Shown here: piece by piece, positions 4,871-35,408 of the stretch | How positions within the stretch are numbered: the stretch's first letter is position 1 | Layout: every line of letters begins with the position of its first letter | Source of the DNA: an uncultured Ignavibacteria bacterium | Lineage (GTDB): Bacteria > Zixibacteria > MSB-5A5 > DSPP01 | Assembly (NCBI GenBank): GCA_964607165.1 | Contig: CAZSIT010000002.1 | Coordinates: 46,063-110,062 of the forward strand | Length of the DNA: 64,000 nt | Direction of reading: 5' to 3' | Program-made: the position numbers and the translations under genes | Notes under the pieces: generated by a model | Told to the model about the DNA's origin: nothing | The model's input: the letters and a program-made list of their open reading frames with translations, nothing else | Databases searched by the model: none

Positions 4871-5415
4871 AGCTCTTCTTCTCTCCAGCCGCCCGGAATT
4901 TCCACCCCCATCAACCGCAAAATCTTGTTGGAAAAATCGCGGTAATTATCCTCCAGCGTTTTGGGCTGGGTATAAAACGGAGGCGAAATCGGCATTATGA
5001 TTACCCCTTCGTGCGAAAGTTTGAGCGCATTTTCCAGGGCAATCGAAGAAAGCGGCGTTTCGCGCAAGGCCAGAATGATTCGGCGTCTTTCCTTTAACGC
5101 CACTTCGGCAATCCGGGTGATTAAGGTATCCGCAATTCCGGCGGCGATTTTCGCCATAGTGGAAACGGAACAAGGGTTGACCACAAACCAATCGAAAGGA
5201 TTGGAGCCGGAAGAAAAAGGAGCCGCCAGTTCTTTGTTGGAAAAAATCTTGGCGCAATGCCCGGCCAAATCTTCCAGAGTAAGCCCCGCTTCCATTTTCA
5301 AAACCGCCTTGCCCCAATCCGAAATTACCAGATATTTTTCTCCCGGGCAGCGTTTGAGGAACTCGACGCCGTAGATGATGCCGGAAGCACCGGTCATAGC
5401 GATAACGGTTCTCAA
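4867..5415 (-). CDS. UbiX-family flavin prenyltransferase (prFMN synthase; MqnM-like)
   Basis: 182 aa; 'VIAMTGASG' N-terminal flavoprotein motif; ATGA overlap with UbiD-like gene. Confidence 0.8.
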   Translation of the reverse strand: MRTVIAMTGASGIIYGVEFLKRCPGEKYLVISDWGKAVLKMEAGLTLEDLAGHCAKIFSNKELAAPFSSGSNPFDWFVVNPCSVSTMAKIAAGIADTLITRIAEVALKERRRIILALRETPLSSIALENALKLSHEGVIIMPISPPFYTQPKTLEDNYRDFSNKILRLMGVEIPGGWREEEL

Positions 5416-6257
5416 AATTCAACCTTTCCAAAGACCACCACTCCCAAAACCACAAACCCAACGGCGGCGTTAATTTTGAAGAATGCCAGCTCAATGTTTT
5501 CCACCGCCAGATGCTGCCAGATAAGCAGCGCGCCGACACCGGCCAAGAGAACCCCTGACCAGGTGTTGGGAAATTGCCACATTATCAAAGCTGCCAGTGA
5601 AGCAAAAGCCAGAACGTGAATCAAGCTCGAGGCCAAAAGCGCTTTTGCCTTTCCCAGCGCCACCACCAGCGAATGCAAATTCAGCTTTCGGTCAAATTCT
5701 TCGTCTCCAGCGGCGTAAATGATGTCAAAACCGGAGACCCAGAAAAAAGAGAACAGGCCGAGCAAAATGGCGGGAGCACAGCCGGAAAAACTGCCCGAAA
5801 CTGCCATCCAACCCCCCAGAGGAGCACAGGCGGAAGCGGCCCCCAGCCCAAAGTGGGCCAGCGGGGTGAACCGCTTCATATAGGGATAGGCCACAAAAAT
5901 GGCCAAAGGAAAAGGCGAGAGAATCAAGCACCAGGTATTGAGCATTGCCGCCGCCAGAACGTAAACCGCAGCGCTGACCAAAGTAAAAACCCAGGCCTCG
6001 GTGATTTTAACTTTGCCCGCCGGAATCTCGCGGCTTGCCGTGCGGGGGTTTAGAGCGTCAATCTTGGCATCGATGATTCGGTTCAGGGCAAAGGCGGTCG
6101 AGCGCGCTCCGGCGGCGGCCAACAGGATGAGCATACCTTCTTTAAGCGTTATAGAAAATCCTTTAGCCAAAAAAGCGCCGGCATAGACCATTGGCAAAGA
6201 GAAAAGCGTATGCTCCAACTTCACCAAACGGGCGTACTTCGAAAACATAGCCGCCAA
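5412..6257 (-). CDS. UbiA-family polyprenyltransferase (MqnP/MenA-like)
   Basis: 281 aa polytopic membrane protein with UbiA-type Asp-rich region 'DIIYAAGDEEFD'; start is either TTG 6257 or ATG 6248 (no strong RBS for either). Confidence 0.7.
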   Translation of the reverse strand: MAAMFSKYARLVKLEHTLFSLPMVYAGAFLAKGFSITLKEGMLILLAAAGARSTAFALNRIIDAKIDALNPRTASREIPAGKVKITEAWVFTLVSAAVYVLAAAMLNTWCLILSPFPLAIFVAYPYMKRFTPLAHFGLGAASACAPLGGWMAVSGSFSGCAPAILLGLFSFFWVSGFDIIYAAGDEEFDRKLNLHSLVVALGKAKALLASSLIHVLAFASLAALIMWQFPNTWSGVLLAGVGALLIWQHLAVENIELAFFKINAAVGFVVLGVVVFGKVEF

Positions 6258-6361
6258 AAAAGAGGCTTTGATGGGTTAGGTCAAGCCCCCTTATATAACT
6301 CTATGGTTTAAACCTATGAGTCAAAGGCAAAGAGTACAAAAAAAGTTCCTGCTGACGGAGA

Positions 6362-6394
6362 CAAAAAACCAAAGGGCGGGTTTGCACCCGCCCC
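6362..6394 (-). terminator. Rho-independent terminator after dockerin-like gene B1
   Basis: GGGCGGG-tttgca-CCCGCCC stem-loop; on minus strand followed by TTTGGTTTTTTGT. Confidence 0.7.
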
Positions 6395-6416
6395 TTGATT
6401 CGTCTTACTAATGGGG

Positions 6417-6893
6417 CTATGGTCCGCACCAGGGAGGAGCATTTAACCCCAAATAGGTCTTGTTCAGTTCCAAGACCACATCCGCGCTGGTCAAAATCCC
6501 ATCGCAGTTGACATCCGAAAAACAGGCGTCGCAGCTACCAAGTCCCAAATAAGTGCAGTTAAGCAGCAACACCACATCGGCGCTGGTGTAAATATCATCA
6601 AAGTTCATATCTCCTTTAAGCGCAGCACAGGTGGCCTGCCAAAAGCCGATGCCCAGGTTCAGGCCGCCGCCGCTTCCCGCTCCCGACACCGACTGGCCAA
6701 CCGTGTAGCCCAGTTTAAGCGGGCCGCCCGAGCCAAAGCTCGCGCCTCCGCCGTTGATGGAAATCCATTTGAGTTGTGGCAGGGCAAAAGCGGCTCCCGC
6801 CAGCCATACGGTCAGGAAAGCTACAAGAAGCGCAAAAAGGAACAGATGCTTCTTTCTACTTCCTATCAAAGTGGGAACACATTTAGTTGTCAT
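6417..6893 (-). CDS. small secreted protein B1: signal peptide, Gly-rich region, C-terminal Cys-containing dockerin-like double repeat
   Basis: 158 aa; hydrophobic N-terminus; 'DMNFDDIYTSADVVLLLNCTYLG' and 'DVNCDGILTSADVVLELNKTYLG' each fit the dockerin Ca-loop DxNxDGxxxxxD followed by hydrophobic helix; AGGAGG RBS; start overlaps upstream gene by 11 nt. Confidence 0.7.
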   Translation of the reverse strand: MTTKCVPTLIGSRKKHLFLFALLVAFLTVWLAGAAFALPQLKWISINGGGASFGSGGPLKLGYTVGQSVSGAGSGGGLNLGIGFWQATCAALKGDMNFDDIYTSADVVLLLNCTYLGLGSCDACFSDVNCDGILTSADVVLELNKTYLGLNAPPWCGP

Positions 6894-29267: not shown

Positions 29268-29805
29268 GTTTGGCGTGAACAAATCTCTGGCTGCCCGCCC
29301 GATTGACCCCGGCACTGACATTGGCCACGTGCATTTGAAAGTCGCCGATTTGGAGCGGGCGCTCGATTTTTACTGCGGGGTGCTCGGTTTTGAACTGACC
29401 ACGCGCTACGGCGCGGAGGCGGCCTTCGTTTCCGCCGGGGGATATCATCACCACATCGGGTTGAACACCTGGGAATCGCGCGGCGGCTCTCCGCCGCCCC
29501 CCGGTTCCACCGGGCTGTATCATTTTGCCATCCGCTATCCCGACCGCGCCGCCCTTGCAGATGCCCTGCACCGTTTGCGTCAGGCCAAAATCCCCCTCGA
29601 AGGGGCGGCCGACCACGGCGTCAGCGAAGCTTTATATCTGCGCGACCCGGACGGCAACGGCATTGAACTTTACTGGGACCGCCCGCGCGAAAAATGGCCG
29701 AAAACGCCGGACGGAAAAATCGAAATGTACACCCGGCCGTTGAAAACCCTGAGCGTCAAAGACCACGTCATAGACCCTGAGCGAAGCCGAAGGGAACGCA
29801 GTTGA
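29251..29805 (+). CDS. VOC (glyoxalase/bleomycin-resistance/dioxygenase) family protein
   Basis: 'IGHVHLKVADLERALDFYCGVLGFEL' glyoxalase-type beta-alpha-beta-beta-beta module; exact start uncertain. Confidence 0.65.
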   Translation: MGWQNKFGVNKSLAARPIDPGTDIGHVHLKVADLERALDFYCGVLGFELTTRYGAEAAFVSAGGYHHHIGLNTWESRGGSPPPPGSTGLYHFAIRYPDRAALADALHRLRQAKIPLEGAADHGVSEALYLRDPDGNGIELYWDRPREKWPKTPDGKIEMYTRPLKTLSVKDHVIDPERSRRERS

Positions 29806-29888
29806 AGGGTAGCCGAAGGGTTGGATTTGGAAAACTTGCTGGCGGAAGCTCCCAAAGAGCGCTAAATTGCTCCTTCGAGGAATTCAAG

Positions 29889-30680
29889 ATGAAAATGTTG
29901 AACGTGGTGCGGGCGGCGGCAAAACTTTTTTTAGCTTTTAGCCTTCTGGCGTCATCGAGCGCTCTTAAAGCGCAGGGTTTGACGGGGAAAAGCTTTACCG
30001 GACAAAGTTTCAAAACGAGTGCTTTTGTACTTCGCCTCGATTACGGGCGCGACGACTCGGATAGCGAAAATTCCCCGCAAGCACCGGCGCCGGCCGTCAA
30101 AAAGATTAAAACACTTTCTTTTAAAGGCGGGCCAAGAACTTCCTGCAAGTGGTTCTTAATAACTGAGAACGGTTTCGCAGCTATAACGGGCCAGCGCCCC
30201 GAATTATCGCTGCAGCGGAGTACCCGTGTTCACTGGGAGTGGGGGTTGATGAAAAACGCTGGCGAGCGGTATGCTGTGGGGGGCGCTTTTTACGTCAGTT
30301 TTGAGGCGGAAGATGACCGGGGATTTTTATTTGGCTTCAAGCCGAGATTTCGATACTGGCTCACCCGCCGCTTCACCGCCGACTTTGCCCCGGGGCTGCT
30401 TTTTGCCCAGTCCGGAAACGTCCAAACTTCCTACAAGGCGAGCTTTCCCGGTTTTGAAGGGCACGTTGGGCTTGGCTTCGCGGATTGGGTAAGTTTGAGC
30501 CTTCATTTGGAATTACTCCATCTGGAGCCGAAGTTCAGCTATCAAAGTTACGCCCCTCCAATACCAACTCAAAAAAATTGGTATATAGGAATAACTTTCG
30601 GCTCATATCCCGGCGCAATTTTAAGCCCGATTAGCGGCGCTTTGGCTGTGTTGGCACACGCAATTGCCTTAGCCGATTGA
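29889..30680 (+). CDS. hypothetical secreted protein
   Basis: Signal peptide 'MKMLNVVRAAAKLFLAFSLLASSSALKAQ'; beta-rich; no recognisable domain. Confidence 0.4.
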   Translation: MKMLNVVRAAAKLFLAFSLLASSSALKAQGLTGKSFTGQSFKTSAFVLRLDYGRDDSDSENSPQAPAPAVKKIKTLSFKGGPRTSCKWFLITENGFAAITGQRPELSLQRSTRVHWEWGLMKNAGERYAVGGAFYVSFEAEDDRGFLFGFKPRFRYWLTRRFTADFAPGLLFAQSGNVQTSYKASFPGFEGHVGLGFADWVSLSLHLELLHLEPKFSYQSYAPPIPTQKNWYIGITFGSYPGAILSPISGALAVLAHAIALAD

Positions 30681-30803: not shown

Positions 30804-32663
30804 TCAGGATTTGCTATCTTTTGTCTTTTTGACCCAATCTCTGACCATTTGTTCAAGGATATTCAAAGGCACCGCCCCGCTGCCCAAAACCAAATCGTGA
30901 AAAGCGCGAAGGTCAAACTTCTCCCCCAAATCCTTTTGCGCCGCCTCGCGTAATTCCTTGATTTTCAACTGGCCGATTTTATAGGCCAAGGCCTGCCCGG
31001 GCCAAACAATGTAACGGTCCACCTCCACCGTAATGTCGTGTTCGGCCTTGCCGACGTTTTGCGTAAAGTAATCGATCGCCTGCTGGCGGCTCCAGCCCTT
31101 CCAGTGCATCCCCACGTCCACCACCAGGCGGATGGCCCGCCACATTTCGTAGCTCAACTGCCCAAATTTGGAATAAGGGTCTTGATAAAAGCCCATTTCG
31201 TATCCCAAACCTTCGGCATACAACCCCCACCCTTCTCCGTAGGCGGTGTACCAGCCCCAGCGCCGGAATTCCGGCAGGTTTTCCAACTCCTGCGCTATGG
31301 AGCCCTGCAGATGGTGACCGGGAACGGCTTCGTGCAGGGTTAAAGGTTCCATTTCCCATTTGGGGCGGGATTTCAAATCATAGGTGTTGGCATAAAAGTA
31401 TCCGGGACGGCCGGCTGCCAGCGAGCCGGGCTGGTAATAGGCGGTGGTCTGCGATTTTTCCATATACTCCGGCACCGGCTTCACCCCGTACGGCAGGCGG
31501 GGCAGATGCCCGAACAGCTTGATTAACTCCGGGTCGGCCCGCTTGCAAATATCGCGATAGGATTCCAAAAGGTCCTCCGCTTTCGAAAAGAAAAACTGCG
31601 GGTCAGTGCGCAAAAAGTCGCAAAATTCGGAAAAACTCCCTTTGAAAGCGGTTTCGGCAATTACCTTGTCCATTTCCCCGCGTATGCGCTTAACTTCGCT
31701 TTCCCCCAGGTCGAAAATTTGTTCCGGGGTCATCGCCGTGGTGGTGTAGGATTTGGCCTGATAGGCGTACCATTTTTTCCCGTTGGGAATATCCGACAGG
31801 CCGATGCTGGTCCGGCAGCCGGGGAGATAGGTCTTTTCGAGATAGGCGGCCAGCGCTTCAAAAGCTGGGACGATTTGGCCGGTGTATAGCGAATGCGCTT
31901 CCTTGCGCAACTCCTCCTGCTTCGCCGTTGGAATGGTGTTTGGAAAGGTTTTGAAAGGGGTCAGCATCGGCGCTTCGGCCGGGTCCTTTACGATTTGATC
32001 TCTGACCTGCTGGGGAACGTCCCGCAGGGTAATCTGCGGCGGCGTAATCCCCTCTTTCAAACCGCGCTCCAAAAGCACCCGCACCTGGCCGGTCAAAGCG
32101 GGAACCGCTTTCAGCCGGGCCAGAATATCCTGATAATCCTTCACGGTGCCAGACGGCATAACGGCGACCAACTGGGGGATATCCTGCTGCACGCCGTTCA
32201 ATTGCGTAAGGGGGGTCAGTTCGGCGGGAAATTCCGCCCCTTCGATGTCAAGCGAGGTTTTGTCCTTGAAAAGGTCGTAATTGAGTTGGTCTTGGCTGGA
32301 AAGTTTCTCTTTGGAAATAGAGTTTAAAACCTCGATAATCAGGGGGGATTCTTTTTTGCGTCTTTCTATGGCGGCAAACGACATATCGGTCAATTTGTCG
32401 TTTAAGCCGGGATAGCCGATGAAGGTGGCGAACTCCGGACTTTCCTCCATCCCATGCTTCCAGCACAAATCAAAAAGCTGGTAGAGCCGCGCGGAGTCGG
32501 CGACTTTTCCTTTGGATTGGGCGAGGTTGGCACAGCTTTTTTGGAAACTGGTCATCTGGTTTTGGGCGGAAGCCGATAGAGGGAGTACCAACATTGAGCT
32601 AAGCAATGCTACTGCGATTCGTTTTTTCGATGGCCATTTCATTCCAGCCCGCAAAGTATACAA
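30804..32663 (-). CDS. DUF885-family secreted putative metallopeptidase
   Basis: 619 aa; signal peptide; 'LHEAVPGHHLQ' HExxxGH motif typical of DUF885. Confidence 0.6.
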   Translation of the reverse strand: MYTLRAGMKWPSKKRIAVALLSSMLVLPLSASAQNQMTSFQKSCANLAQSKGKVADSARLYQLFDLCWKHGMEESPEFATFIGYPGLNDKLTDMSFAAIERRKKESPLIIEVLNSISKEKLSSQDQLNYDLFKDKTSLDIEGAEFPAELTPLTQLNGVQQDIPQLVAVMPSGTVKDYQDILARLKAVPALTGQVRVLLERGLKEGITPPQITLRDVPQQVRDQIVKDPAEAPMLTPFKTFPNTIPTAKQEELRKEAHSLYTGQIVPAFEALAAYLEKTYLPGCRTSIGLSDIPNGKKWYAYQAKSYTTTAMTPEQIFDLGESEVKRIRGEMDKVIAETAFKGSFSEFCDFLRTDPQFFFSKAEDLLESYRDICKRADPELIKLFGHLPRLPYGVKPVPEYMEKSQTTAYYQPGSLAAGRPGYFYANTYDLKSRPKWEMEPLTLHEAVPGHHLQGSIAQELENLPEFRRWGWYTAYGEGWGLYAEGLGYEMGFYQDPYSKFGQLSYEMWRAIRLVVDVGMHWKGWSRQQAIDYFTQNVGKAEHDITVEVDRYIVWPGQALAYKIGQLKIKELREAAQKDLGEKFDLRAFHDLVLGSGAVPLNILEQMVRDWVKKTKDSKS

Positions 32664-32766
32664 CTATTTGCGCCGCTTGCGCAAGGCCAAAATCGCCTTG
32701 GAAGAAGCCAGTGACCCTGACCGGTCAGGGAGTCCTGGCACCCCGGAAATTTTTTGAAAACTGGGC

Positions 32767-32795
32767 TTGACAAAACCGAAAGCCCCGGCTATACT
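32767..32795 (+). promoter_or_regulatory. near-consensus sigma-70 promoter (TTGACA-17 nt-TATACT) for AT-rich gene 32999..34171
   Basis: cTTGACAaaaccgaaagccccggcTATACTgac; downstream 5'UTR contains hairpin gggatgtgaggattcgcatccc and an AGGAGG RBS. Confidence 0.55.
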
Positions 32796-32998
32796 GACCC
32801 CGAAAGATAAGCCCGTGGATTCGGGCTGAATGAAACCGCAGGTGCGGGAAGAAAGGAGAGATGAAATGGATTTTACATGATTTTAGTTTTAGCGGCTGCA
32901 ATGAAATTTATGCAGCTTTTTTTATTTGACGAAAACGGGATGTGAGGATTCGCATCCCATAAACTGAAAACCGAAACTCCATTAGGAGGAAGGAAAAA

Positions 32999-34171
32999 AT
33001 GAAATCTATATTCTTAAGAACCGAATTTAACCGTCGTTTCCCTGATCCTCTAAACAAGTCCGACCAAGATGAGCCCACAAGCATCGAGCACTATATTTTA
33101 CTTTGCAGAGCTGTAGATATACCGCCAGGTATTCCGACGGCTCCAAATCCAAGGGAACAAGACACAGATAAAACAATCTACCAGGAAGTCAAAAAAAGCC
33201 TTCTGAGCGAAGCCGATCCTACTTTTCATCTTAAGAACAAGGGGATTACAATTATCGCTCACAAGGTGGACTATAGCAACCATAAAGATGGTTTAGAAGT
33301 TTTCTTCAATGAAGACGATGGTATAGTCGATGGTGCCCACACCTATACAATCATAGTCGACAACAAGGATGAGTGCCCGCACAATCAATTTGTTAAACTG
33401 GAAATATTGACAGCCATTCCGAGGTCCTTTGTCGAACCCATTGCGCAGGGTCTAAATACTGCTGTGCAGGTACAAACTATGAGTCTGGCCAATCTTGGCA
33501 AAAGGTTCGAATGGATCAAAGAAATCTTGAATAAAACACCATACGCTTCAGAAATTGCCTACAAAGAAAACGAGGACGGTGAATTTACCATTAGAGATAT
33601 CATCAGCTTAATGACTCTTTTTAATATTGAGTCATATCCTGATGGTTCTACCCATCCTAAGGTTGCTTATGTTAGCAAAGCGAAAGCATTGGAAGATTAT
33701 TTAAAAAGCCAAAATTCATTTGAAAAATTGTCGCTGATACTAAAGGACATCTTAGAACTTCATGATTATGTCCATTTAAAAGGACGGGGGCTCTATAACG
33801 AAAAATATAAAGGGAAAGGTGGAAGGTTGGCATTCTACCAAACTCGGAAGAAAGGATATAGGCTCGTATTCACAAGAAAGGAAACACCAAGCATGCTGTA
33901 TGACGGTGCACTTTATCCCATTTTGGGTGCATTCAGATACCTCGTGGGACAAAAACCCGGCAACGGCCATTTTTCTTGGAAGGTCGGCTCTTTTGAGGAG
34001 GTCAAAAAAATATTTGACAAGGTTGGAGCTGACATGATTAACTCAACTAAAGGCAAAAGCGATAGCACTGGCAGAAATCCAAATGCTATCGGCAAAGATG
34101 ATGGCCATTGGGAAAATCTGTACAAAACTGTTGCCCTTGCTTACTTTGAAAATAACAGAGCTAAAAACTAA
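32999..34171 (+). CDS. hypothetical 390-aa protein in AT-rich islet (possible abortive-infection/defence-type gene; no confident family)
   Basis: Low-GC gene flanked by high-GC core genes, own strong promoter and terminator; weak resemblance of 'GIVDGAHTYTI' to AIPR-type motifs is not sufficient for assignment. Confidence 0.3.
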   Translation: MKSIFLRTEFNRRFPDPLNKSDQDEPTSIEHYILLCRAVDIPPGIPTAPNPREQDTDKTIYQEVKKSLLSEADPTFHLKNKGITIIAHKVDYSNHKDGLEVFFNEDDGIVDGAHTYTIIVDNKDECPHNQFVKLEILTAIPRSFVEPIAQGLNTAVQVQTMSLANLGKRFEWIKEILNKTPYASEIAYKENEDGEFTIRDIISLMTLFNIESYPDGSTHPKVAYVSKAKALEDYLKSQNSFEKLSLILKDILELHDYVHLKGRGLYNEKYKGKGGRLAFYQTRKKGYRLVFTRKETPSMLYDGALYPILGAFRYLVGQKPGNGHFSWKVGSFEEVKKIFDKVGADMINSTKGKSDSTGRNPNAIGKDDGHWENLYKTVALAYFENNRAKN

Positions 34172-34186
34172 TAAAAACGCAATTAA

Positions 34187-34225
34187 TAAGAAGCCCCGCC
34201 TGGAATGGGCGGGGCTTCTTATTCT
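34187..34225 (+). terminator. terminator-like hairpin after islet gene
   Basis: AAGAAGCCCCGCC-tggaat-GGGCGGGGCTTCTT followed by ATTCTGG (weak U-tract). Confidence 0.5.
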
Positions 34226-34332
34226 GGAACAAAAGCGACTCGCGTTCAGTTAAAAATAGAAACGGCGCGAATGTCGGTAAGCAAGGAATAACATTAGCGG
34301 GGTAATTTTTGCCCTATGTAAAGGAGAAAAAA

Positions 34333-34395
34333 ATGATAAATTTCTTCAAAAAACTTGGAACAACCTTTACCTATTTCCGGTTATTGCCGGTATGA
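34333..34395 (+). other. 20-codon upstream ORF (MINFFKKLGTTFTYFRLLPV) with AAGGAG RBS, stop overlapping msrBA start (ATGA); lies within repeat copy 2
   Basis: aaggagaaaaaaATGataaat...ccggtATGAaaaca; the uORF TGA overlaps the ATG of the 34392 gene. Confidence 0.35.
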
Positions 34396-35408
34396 AAACA
34401 ACAATTATACTATTGGCGTTGGTGGTAGGTATTATAGGGGTTTTTGGGTTGGTTTTGTCGCAAGGAACAAAGAAGAAGGAGGATAGTAACAAAGTGACTT
34501 ACAATAAGTTGACCCCCGAGGAGGAGCGGGTAATCGTGCGCAAGGGCACGGAGATGCCCTATACCGGCAAGTATTACGATTCCCACGACAAGGGAACCTA
34601 CACCTGCAAACGCTGCGGGGCGGTGCTCTACCGTTCGGACGACAAGTTCGATTCCCACTGCGGCTGGCCCAGCTTTGACGACGCCGTTCCGGGGGCGGTC
34701 AAGCAGGTGCCGGACGCCGATGGCCAGCGCACGGAGATTTTGTGCAACCACTGCGGCGCGCACCTGGGGCACGTTTTTACCGGGGAAGGTCTCACTTCCA
34801 AAGACACGCGCTATTGCGTAAATTCAATTTCTATGAGCTTTATCCCGGCCGGAGCCGGCGTATCCCCTGGCCGAGGAGTGGAGCGGGGAGAACGGGCAGG
34901 CGAAACGAACGGTAAGAGTCAAACCAAGACGCAAAAGGCCTATTTTGCCGGCGGATGCTTTTGGGGAACGGAGTATTATTTAAAGCAGGTCAAAGGGGTA
35001 ACGGACGTGAAGGTCGGCTATATGGGTGGGAAGAAGAAAAACCCGACCTACCGGGAGGTCTGCAACGGGAACACCGGGCACATTGAGGCCAACGAGGTGA
35101 CTTTTGATCCGACCAAGACCAGCTACGAGGAAGTGGCCAAGTTATTTTTCGAAATCCACGACCCGGCGCAGGTGAACCGCCAGGGGCCTGACGTCGGGGA
35201 ACAGTATAAGTCGGTGGTTTTCTACGCTAACGATGAGCAGAAACATACGGCGGAAAAGCTGATTGGAATTCTGAAGAGCAAGAGAATACCGGTGGCGACG
35301 GAGCTGCGCCCGGCAACCGAGTTCTGGGTGGCGGAGGATTATCATCAGGATTACTACGCCAAAACCGGCAAGGAGCCGTACTGCCATCATCGGGTGAAGC
35401 GGTTTTAA
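34392..35408 (+). CDS. msrBA: bifunctional peptide-methionine sulfoxide reductase MsrB-MsrA fusion with N-terminal TM helix
   Basis: MsrB zinc CxxC pairs ('CKRCGAVLY','CNHCGAHLGHVF') and 'RYCVNS'; MsrA 'FAGGCFWGTEYY'; linker contains the 40-nt motif shared with 28511..28560. Confidence 0.85.
   Translation: MKTTIILLALVVGIIGVFGLVLSQGTKKKEDSNKVTYNKLTPEEERVIVRKGTEMPYTGKYYDSHDKGTYTCKRCGAVLYRSDDKFDSHCGWPSFDDAVPGAVKQVPDADGQRTEILCNHCGAHLGHVFTGEGLTSKDTRYCVNSISMSFIPAGAGVSPGRGVERGERAGETNGKSQTKTQKAYFAGGCFWGTEYYLKQVKGVTDVKVGYMGGKKKNPTYREVCNGNTGHIEANEVTFDPTKTSYEEVAKLFFEIHDPAQVNRQGPDVGEQYKSVVFYANDEQKHTAEKLIGILKSKRIPVATELRPATEFWVAEDYHQDYYAKTGKEPYCHHRVKRF

Follow-up and report, generated by a model that had tools for sequence, protein, structure and literature searches.

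A mobile short AIPR gene with a conserved, covarying leader RNA in a Zixibacteria-lineage contig, a candidate single-gene defence cassette

Introduction

A gene of the AIPR family, encoding a protein of 390 amino acids, lies in a 64,000-nucleotide stretch (hereafter the window) of contig CAZSIT010000002.1 (assembly GCA_964607165.1, positions 46,063 to 110,062, forward strand) from an uncultured bacterium named Ignavibacteria and placed in the Zixibacteria by GTDB. As judged from comparative sequence analysis, its leader is a conserved RNA element of about 200 nt that moves with the AIPR gene across more than 15 phyla. Promoter, leader, gene and terminator form a horizontally acquired single-gene cassette of ~1.66 kb, and we consider it fairly probable that its product is a stand-alone defence effector gated by the leader after the start of transcription. 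The combination of a short AIPR gene with a portable, covarying leader is not described in the searched papers and databases, whereas the protein itself has nothing unusual about it as an annotated member of its family. As a cis-regulatory RNA absent from Rfam 15, the leader is a strong candidate for a new and widespread class.

Conservation and covariation of the leader

All homologous loci inspected contain a long intergenic region upstream of the AIPR gene with the same leader architecture, visible by eye in distant phyla. In the short form, a promoter is followed by hairpin A, which displays a UGGAYU loop at the extreme 5' end of the transcript, by hairpin B, whose loop is usually GGAU or GGAC, and by a Shine-Dalgarno sequence (SD) and the AIPR start codon; an internal terminator is absent from these loci. 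The long form, represented by the window, adds after the first SD a mini open reading frame (mini-ORF) of 2-6 codons, an intrinsic terminator and a second hairpin/SD unit. All aligned units (42/42) have GGA in the loop of hairpin A while the stems vary, and GGAU or GGAC loops occur in hairpins 3 and 4 as well as in hairpin B, where they are the commonest loop type. In hairpin A, each of the three inner pairs forms in 100% of the units and shows 3-11 double (compensatory) changes. Over the 42-unit alignment, 76.6% of the cells of the specified structure are paired, compared with 55.4% in shuffles (0/500 reach the observed value) and 31-45% with slid partners, and the covariation score is 0.535 versus 0.19. 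This result was repeated on 67 model-aligned sequences, an alignment that is itself fitted to the structure. Since conservation lies in the loops and covariation in the stems, the leader is taken to act as RNA and not as a double-stranded DNA palindrome read by its sequence.

Covariance model R1, which describes one leader unit, was searched on both strands of the window and of 87 loci (880 kb, E<=1). It returned 67 matches, all on the gene strand, and 65 of them lie upstream of an AIPR gene as its first or second unit; the window contains two (34.3 and 23.6 bits), and no others in its 64 kb. When metagenomes were scanned for the exact pattern, 66 loci were obtained and scored with R1. Eighteen exceeded 34 bits, and an AIPR gene follows in 14 of the 15 that have enough downstream sequence. 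The other 48 are chance matches, 47 of them with at most 16 bits or no match and one (L239, inside a membrane-protein gene) with 24.4 bits. As a negative control, a looser leader pattern was run against viral contigs and gave 85 matches, all attributable to chance, located in GC-rich coding sequence without a second stem and close to the number expected. In Rfam 15, no plus-strand match at E<=10 was found for the window leader and no gathering-level match for the leaders of 14 loci, only noise being returned for those of L031 and L052. That the hairpins are chance or DNA-level features, such as operator palindromes or transcription-factor sites, is very improbable. They do lie near the promoter (about +8 to +45), a frequent operator location; against this stand the RNA signature of covarying stems with conserved loops, the confinement of R1 matches to the sense strand, and the low scores and missing second stem of the chance matches in viral and metagenomic DNA, L239 excepted.

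The highest score of the metagenome set (58.2 bits) belongs to a locus of another kind. At positions 229-545 of L198 (JGI Ga0114920_10278667), a full promoter and leader unit drive an unrelated basic ORF of 71 amino acids (MGRKEDDEKAYTTYDG...), which has no PHROGs match and stands in place of the mini-ORF, terminator and AIPR gene; the leader may accordingly be a portable regulatory cassette. A second leader type is found in loci L070-L082, which form the AIPR clade most distant from the window protein (30-36% identity) and come mostly from Alphaproteobacteria, together with Verrucomicrobiota and Gammaproteobacteria. These keep a first hairpin of the GGAUUCG/GGGUUCG type, and about 70 nt upstream of the AIPR start the GGA hairpin B is replaced by a conserved hairpin, GGYCGCYNAGCGRCAC, directly before the SD. 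R1 is essentially blind to this type, with one marginal match (L074, 21.2 bits, E=0.015). In the Trueperaceae loci L009/L021, the 727 nt upstream of the AIPR gene (5274-6000) are unannotated and the opposite strand reads like coding sequence, the true leader being a short form inside the last 100 nt.

In all 23 long-form loci, the hairpin scan found a stem and U-run 71-121 nt upstream of the AIPR ATG, with stem sequences that differ from locus to locus. Mini-ORFs of 2-6 codons are present in 15 of the 16 long-form loci scored, with a stop codon placed from 2 nt inside the terminator stem to 22 nt before it. Their SD is usually very strong, often the full AAGGAGGUGAU, and no peptide is conserved.

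Leader architecture in the window

The window leader (32802-33015) folds at -60.1 kcal/mol, with z = -4.24 against dinucleotide-preserving shuffles. A preliminary description of this DNA, made from the sequence alone, had reported a structured 5' untranslated region with one quoted hairpin; that hairpin is real (hairpin 3 in Table 1), but instead of standing singly it belongs to the multi-element leader of ~200 nt with its internal terminator. In the first unit, hairpins A and B are followed by an SD and the four-codon mini-ORF, and the internal terminator starts 13 nt after the mini-ORF stop codon. An alternative in-frame reading of the mini-ORF from ATG 32861 has 22 codons. The second unit, a more diverged copy, abuts the AIPR start; here the 9-bp stem of hairpin 3 presents a GGAU tetraloop, and a further small hairpin masks the AIPR SD. 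The predicted unpaired probability is 0.00 for the core of the AIPR SD and 1.00 for the mini-ORF SD. Sequestration of the SD was considered as a general mechanism and rejected: it holds for the AIPR SD of the window and not family-wide, where accessibility is mixed (median unpaired probability 0.64) and the SD is accessible in most short-form leaders.

The promoter matches 11 of 12 consensus positions, as the preliminary description had read it, and is the sole site of this quality within the 2.4 kb scanned; by our own estimate, about 0.03 such sites would be expected there by chance. Transcription would start near 32802, as deduced from the promoter position. In many homologous loci of other phyla, the first hairpin is likewise preceded by a similar promoter, at a distance of 34-52 nt.

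Insertion at the msrBA-DUF885 junction

The AIPR gene lies between a DUF885 gene and msrBA, and comparison with relatives of the host identifies it as a recent, horizontally acquired insertion. In three relatives (L251, L252 and L253, with DUF885 proteins 83%, 79% and 76% identical to that of the window), msrBA and DUF885 are separated by 84, 200 and 196 nt, respectively, without an AIPR gene. The closest DUF885 homologues are named Zixibacteria, and these three genomes are probably Zixibacteria as well. When their empty junctions were compared with the window by blastn, homology ended at about 32664-32679 on the left and resumed at about 34337-34348 on the right, delimiting an insert of ~1.66 kb. 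No target-site duplication was detected at the insert borders. Near both borders there is a 12-nt inverted repeat, AAATTTTTTGAA / TTCAAAAAACTT (92% complementary; window 32747-32758 and 34345-34356), and the empty sites hold a single TTTTCAAAAAAA copy; as a transposon-type border or integration signature, this repeat is too short and weak to interpret.

In the closest relative (L250, ENA ERZ27267903 k141_469086; DUF885 89% identical), the slot is filled by a Ser/Thr kinase of 542 amino acids (4981-6609), whose kinase domain matches the PADLOC models for PD-T4-6 (2e-93) and mad6; the PD-T4-6 models may match Hanks-type kinases in general. Because this slot holds a PD-T4-6-like kinase where the window has the AIPR gene, the msrBA-DUF885 junction is suggested to be a variable slot for defence-type genes in the lineage. 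The other DUF885 flank differs too: a weak SIR2_2/SIR2-like ORF is found in L251 (5782-6786), an Asp-protease-like ORF in L253, and unrelated ORFs without Pfam match in the window (29802-30680) and in L250 (8864-10240), so that both flanks may be variable.

The description of an AT-rich, horizontally acquired and autonomous single gene was thus borne out. The gene has 40.4% G+C, compared with 51.4% for the rest of the window, and the AIPR gene is lower in G+C than its flanks in 66/66 loci (mean -9.2 points). It has its own promoter and terminator, and the position between DUF885 and msrBA is not conserved in synteny, the AIPR gene being absent from the slot in L251-L253 and replaced by the kinase in L250.

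The AIPR protein

The ORF was confirmed. The preliminary description had found no family that it could name with confidence for the protein; it belongs to AIPR (Pfam PF10592), matching over residues 49-342 and profile positions 3-283 of 308 with 90.6 bits against a gathering cut-off of 25 (E=2e-25), and its homologues carry the NCBI annotation 'AIPR family protein'. This is the only family match: no housekeeping enzyme family matches the window protein, and neither NCBIfam nor PHROGs gave a match. The PADLOC AbiU match is weak and covers the C-terminal half of the model only (positions 255-357 of 537). An exhaustive profile search returned 1636 clusters at 50% identity, 538 of these at E<=1e-30, and almost all of the best 150 of the 1636 are 380-430 amino acids long. 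On this sequence evidence, the window protein belongs to a large, length-uniform "short AIPR" clade. In N-terminally extended relatives, Pfam finds no informative extra domain, apart from a C-terminal DksA/TraR zinc finger in one relative, which may be a gene-calling fusion.

The AlphaFold2 model of the protein has a predicted local distance difference test (pLDDT) score of 90.5. The fold relatives listed with figures are PadC (6.0), KorB (5.1), sulfiredoxin (5.0) and the DUF262 proteins BrxU, DndI and SspE (4.3-4.5). The N-terminal half is assigned, with moderate confidence, to the ParB/sulfiredoxin (DndB/DUF262-like) fold, in agreement with the literature; the assignment is no firmer because neither Foldseek against PDB nor a sequence-profile search of PDB chains found a relative of the window protein. 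The C-terminal half is a helical domain without clear relatives. Invariant residues are KNKG (79-82) and D111-G112-x-H114-T115 (DGAHT), the latter occupying the position of DGQHR or DGQQR in DndB/DUF262 proteins. By analogy with ParB, DUF262 and DndB, the N-terminal half would be a nucleotide-binding or nucleic-acid-acting module, and nucleotide-dependent binding or cutting of nucleic acid may be expected of the protein. Makarova et al. (2013) described in AbiU1/AIPR/COG1479 proteins a ParB-superfamily nuclease domain related to the N-terminus of DndB, and noted that these proteins are often linked to restriction-modification systems (PMC3632139, PMC3506569, PMC2292703). In AbiU-type AIPR proteins this core follows an N-terminal region of ~250 residues, described as a HEPN domain (PMC3506569), which is absent here, the AIPR domain beginning at residue 49 of 390. 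The literature that was searched names the AIPR family and contains no experimental test of it beyond the naming.

Distribution and mobility

Relatives of the window protein, at 30-63% identity, occur in more than 15 phyla. Those inspected for context are lone genes among unrelated housekeeping genes. An all-against-all comparison of neighbours in ~73 loci revealed no recurrent neighbour, the largest neighbour cluster comprising 4 of the ~73, and no linkage to restriction-modification or other defence genes. Carriage of the cassette by phages is not obvious: viral contigs yielded only 7 distant AIPR relatives, and PHROGs was without a match.

Several loci show further particulars. Of the 60 loci scanned, 6-7 have a tRNA gene ~0.2-1 kb from the AIPR cassette (L021 6465-6540, L047 4455-4531, L063 4622-4697, L065 4540-4616, L067 4087-4162, L071 200-277 and L049 7116-7190), where fewer than 2 would roughly be expected by chance; this proximity is consistent with insertion at tRNA-linked hotspots. 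In a Phycisphaerales metagenome-assembled genome (L006/L014 5151-7795), the cassette sits between rpmE/prfA and dnaN-dciA-gyrB, the usual place of dnaA or oriC. The upstream spacer is 850 nt long and AT-rich with repeated TTGATAATTGA-like words, and the downstream spacer of 600 nt contains a series of GC-rich hairpins (CCCCCGG...CCGGGGG then CTAA). In Plesiocystis pacifica SIR-1 (L051 3080-4870, NZ_ABCS01000140.1), a leader of 35.9 bits is followed by a degenerate, truncated AIPR-like frame of ~190 amino acids and then by a full-length AIPR gene, an arrangement that looks like a partial tandem duplication; this cultured myxobacterium is a possible experimental handle.

Other features of the locus

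Positions of the main features are given in Table 1. Both the AGGAGG ahead of the AIPR gene and the downstream hairpin terminator had been noticed in the preliminary description and were located. The latter is scored by the terminator scan on the minus strand; because the plus strand also carries, from the GC core onwards, a U-rich tail (CUUAUUCU), the terminator is probably bidirectional. An ORF of 19 codons, MINFFKKLGTTFTYFRLLPV (34334-34393), has its own AAAGGAG SD, and its terminal ATGA overlaps the msrBA start. The region around its SD and ATG is similar to the AIPR start region (repeat D1, 74% over 23 nt), and part of it is kept in sister genomes as the 5' region of msrBA. Downstream of msrBA come RNase R and then a sigma-54 activator, as labelled by Pfam on the identical JGI contig.

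Table 1. Coordinates of the AIPR cassette, its leader elements and the adjoining genes in the window.
Feature	Position	Strand	Basis
Inserted cassette (promoter, leader, AIPR gene, terminator, ~110 nt tail)	~32680..34336	.	blastn of empty junctions against window
Sigma-70-type promoter TTGACA-17-TATACT	32767..32795	+	11/12 consensus positions matched
Leader unit 1 (hairpin A, hairpin B, SD, ATG)	32803..32868	+	covariance model R1, 34.3 bits, E=4.7e-6
Hairpin 1 (hairpin A) AGCCCG-UGGAUU-CGGGCU, GGA in hexaloop	32810..32827	+	hairpin scan, fold, alignment
Hairpin 2 (hairpin B) CCGC-AGGU-GCGG	32836..32847	+	hairpin scan, fold, alignment
SD of mini-ORF, AAAGGAG	32852-32858	+	read from sequence
Mini-ORF ATG GAT TTT ACA TGA (MDFT*)	32866-32880	+	read from sequence; R1 aligns ATG to 32866-32868
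Internal intrinsic terminator/attenuator GGCUGCA...UGCAGCU then U7	32894..32923	+	hairpin scan, fold
Leader unit 2 (second, more diverged hairpin/SD/ATG copy abutting AIPR start)	32932..33001	+	R1, 23.6 bits, E=3.3e-3
Hairpin 3 gggatgtgaggattcgcatccc, 9-bp stem, GGAU tetraloop	32937..32958	+	present in minimum-free-energy leader fold
Hairpin CUCC-AUUA-GGAG masking AIPR SD	32977-32988	+	leader fold
AIPR SD AGGAGG	32984..32989	+	read from sequence
AIPR-family gene, short form, ParB/Srx-like N-terminal half (probable) and helical C-terminal half	32999..34171	+	
Downstream terminator hairpin, perfect 16-bp inverted repeat	34185..34223	.	terminator scan and repeat search
DUF885 gene	30804..32663	-	neighbour; Pfam labels on identical JGI contig
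msrBA, SelR+PMSR fusion	34392..35408	+	neighbour; Pfam labels on identical JGI contig

Proposed mechanism

The leader most likely keeps the AIPR gene off until it is needed, as its arrangement of sequence elements suggests. The strong promoter would fire constitutively, and control would act after transcription begins. The first 120 nt of the leader carry two hairpins displaying GGA (or GG) loops, a strong SD and the mini-ORF. When the mini-ORF is not translated, the terminator would form and most transcripts would stop at ~32923 (~120 nt), whereas during translation of the mini-ORF the ribosome would sit over the terminator's 5' arm, and transcription would read through into AIPR. Hairpin 3 and the CUCC/GGAG hairpin over the AIPR SD may then constitute a second lock. 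That the gene is doubly locked suggests a product whose expression harms the cell, and the family name and mobility pattern point to the short AIPR protein being a stand-alone effector against phages or mobile elements that is costly to its host. Since the loops keep their sequence while the stems that carry them covary, something, most likely a trans-acting factor, presumably reads them; RNA structure alone does not explain repression, because SD accessibility is mixed and most short-form leaders are open. The reader could be a CsrA/Rsm-type repressor where the host has one, although we would put this at less than an even chance; the AIPR protein itself, the only protein always present with the leader, is a less probable candidate, and the remaining probability falls to another factor or to the RNA alone.

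Several observations weigh against a leader-gated defence effector. The loop of hairpin 2 in the window is AGGU and not the usual GGAU, no alternative antiterminator helix is evident in the window leader fold, and ribosome-occlusion antitermination was deduced from spacing alone. Nor is the leader strictly confined to AIPR genes, since that of L198 drives an unrelated ORF. As to the protein, no recognisable nuclease or other effector domain was found in it, and NTP (nucleoside triphosphate) binding is not assured because the arginine of the DGQ(Q/H)R motif is a threonine in DGAHT. The only phenotype behind the AIPR name is that of Lactococcus AbiU1, a longer protein than those of the short subfamily. 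Low G+C and patchy distribution equally fit selfish or addiction elements without a defensive role.

Alternative explanations

Control by host CsrA/Rsm is a real possibility, though we judge it short of the likelier outcome. A CsrA/RsmA dimer bound to the GGA loops and the GGA-containing SDs, and bridging hairpin and SD, would block initiation at both the mini-ORF and the AIPR gene, and so favour termination; titration of CsrA or a physiological change would free the gene, and the ~120-nt terminated product of the long form could be an RsmY/Z-like sponge. CsrA recognises GGA-containing hairpin loops, represses translation, and is common in Planctomycetota and Pseudomonadota (PMC13443453). The invariant GGA of hairpin A and the prevailing GGAU/GGAC loops of hairpin B agree with such a reader, and so do the two to four GGA hairpins combined with AGGAG SDs and the distance of ~17 nt from the hairpin B loop to the SD. 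The open SD of most short-form leaders calls for a protein in repression, the L198 leader on its unrelated ORF suits a general host factor, and it is the mostly alphaproteobacterial clade L070-L082 that has replaced the GGA hairpin B. CsrA is, however, encoded by only ~30% of bacterial genomes and is scarce within Pseudomonadota outside Gammaproteobacteria (PMC13443453), yet GGA-type leaders are present in Alphaproteobacteria, Chloroflexota and Solirubrobacterales. Conservation in hairpin A also extends beyond GGA to GUGGAYUC. The classical CsrA hexaloop is A-N-GGA-N, from which the N-GGA-NN register of the leader loop differs. No csrA was found in the window or the fetched loci, which says little, as these cover local sequence rather than whole genomes. 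A self-contained RNA-protein module, in which AIPR binds the twin hairpins of its own leader, would need no host factor and would account for function in hosts without CsrA; we hold it to be unlikely. The protein would either autoregulate its translation or be held inactive in the manner of type III toxin-antitoxin systems, with the terminator securing an excess of leader RNA over protein and infection upsetting the balance to free the effector. Leader and gene move together across more than 15 phyla without another conserved partner, and in the metagenomes the leader precedes an AIPR gene in all but one of the testable cases. Both hairpins follow one design (outer stem, bulged A on the 3' side, 5-bp inner stem, UGGAYN loop) that suits a symmetric dimer, and ParB-family proteins act as dimers. 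The order of promoter, RNA, terminator and effector parallels ToxIN. We know of no precedent, however, for RNA-hairpin binding by a protein of the ParB/Srx fold; the 1.1-kb contig of L198 carries the leader but no AIPR gene; leader RNA would not be in excess everywhere, because short-form loci have no internal terminator; and nothing points to RNase activity or processing sites. The bolder version, in which leader RNA is both autoregulator and antitoxin, an 'RNA-level parS', and the effector of the resulting defence module is freed by infection-altered transcription, translation or RNA turnover, appears quite unlikely. If true, AIPR would be the first ParB-superfamily protein to bind an RNA hairpin, and the module would represent a new toxin-antitoxin-like architecture over more than 15 phyla.

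It is also conceivable, if somewhat unlikely, that the gene has no part in defence. Its product would then be a regulator resembling DndB or ParB, a nucleoid-associated protein, or cargo carried by a selfish or addiction element, and mobility and low G+C would reflect selfish spread. DndB, a relative, is a regulator. The lack of a recognisable effector domain, the missing AbiU-type N-terminal region, the absence of association with restriction-modification or defence genes in the ~73 loci, the scarcity of relatives on viral contigs and the lack of a PHROGs match would all suit such a role. A regulator, however, would be expected beside a conserved target operon, and none is present. Extreme patchiness with 50-60% identity between phyla, an elaborate double-lock repression typical of toxic effectors, and insertion at a variable slot, occupied in a sister genome by a PD-T4-6-like kinase and with a weak SIR2-like gene across DUF885 from it in L251, also argue against a role outside defence.

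Relation to known systems

The protein shares with AbiU1/AIPR (PF10592, COG1479; named after AbiU1 of Lactococcus lactis) the significant Pfam match and the ParB-superfamily core. It differs in lacking the N-terminal region described as HEPN, and its short subfamily differs in forming a clade of uniform length with a dedicated conserved RNA leader and in occurring in housekeeping contexts instead of restriction-modification operons. In comparison with DndB (DGQHR) and the DUF262 domains of GmrSD, BrxU, SspE and DndI, the motif has threonine for arginine, no DUF1524/HNH nuclease or other partner domain is attached, no dnd or ssp context is present, and similarity at the sequence level is not detectable against PDB chains.

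The leader resembles CsrA/RsmA-controlled leaders such as those of glgC and hcnA in having several GGA motifs in hairpin loops and one in the SD, at a spacing compatible with dimer bridging, and its predicted terminated form (~120 nt, two hairpins, SD, terminator) resembles a miniature RsmY/Z of the Rsm/Csr sponge RNAs. Unlike CsrA-regulated leaders, it is carried by a mobile gene between phyla, in many of which CsrA is seldom encoded, and it has a different loop register, the extended GUGGAYUC conservation and a terminator coupled to a mini-ORF. With type III toxin-antitoxin and Abi loci (ToxIN, AbiQ) it has in common the succession of strong promoter, repeated units of structured RNA, intrinsic terminator and effector gene, arranged as a mobile single-effector module. 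However, the two units are diverged and not identical tandem repeats, the ParB-like effector is unrelated to the ToxN/AbiQ endoribonuclease, and the terminator is missing from short-form loci. Leader-peptide attenuators of the trp and erm/cat types likewise have a short ORF with an intrinsic terminator directly after it, both preceding the regulated gene, whereas here the ORF has 2-6 codons without conserved peptide or regulatory codons, no antiterminator helix was identified, and simple ribosome occlusion is proposed. By the tests that were run, the AIPR leader is a member of none of these three groups, namely CsrA-controlled leaders, type III toxin-antitoxin loci and leader-ORF attenuators.

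Significance

AIPR is among the oldest "Abi" annotation labels and is essentially without an attached mechanism. Being stripped to the ParB-like core and moving as a lone gene, the short AIPR protein is the simplest system for asking what the AIPR domain does. Its leader offers a concrete, mutable handle on the silencing of a mobile, probably toxic gene in very different hosts, and separates two ideas, host CsrA control and a self-contained RNA-protein switch.

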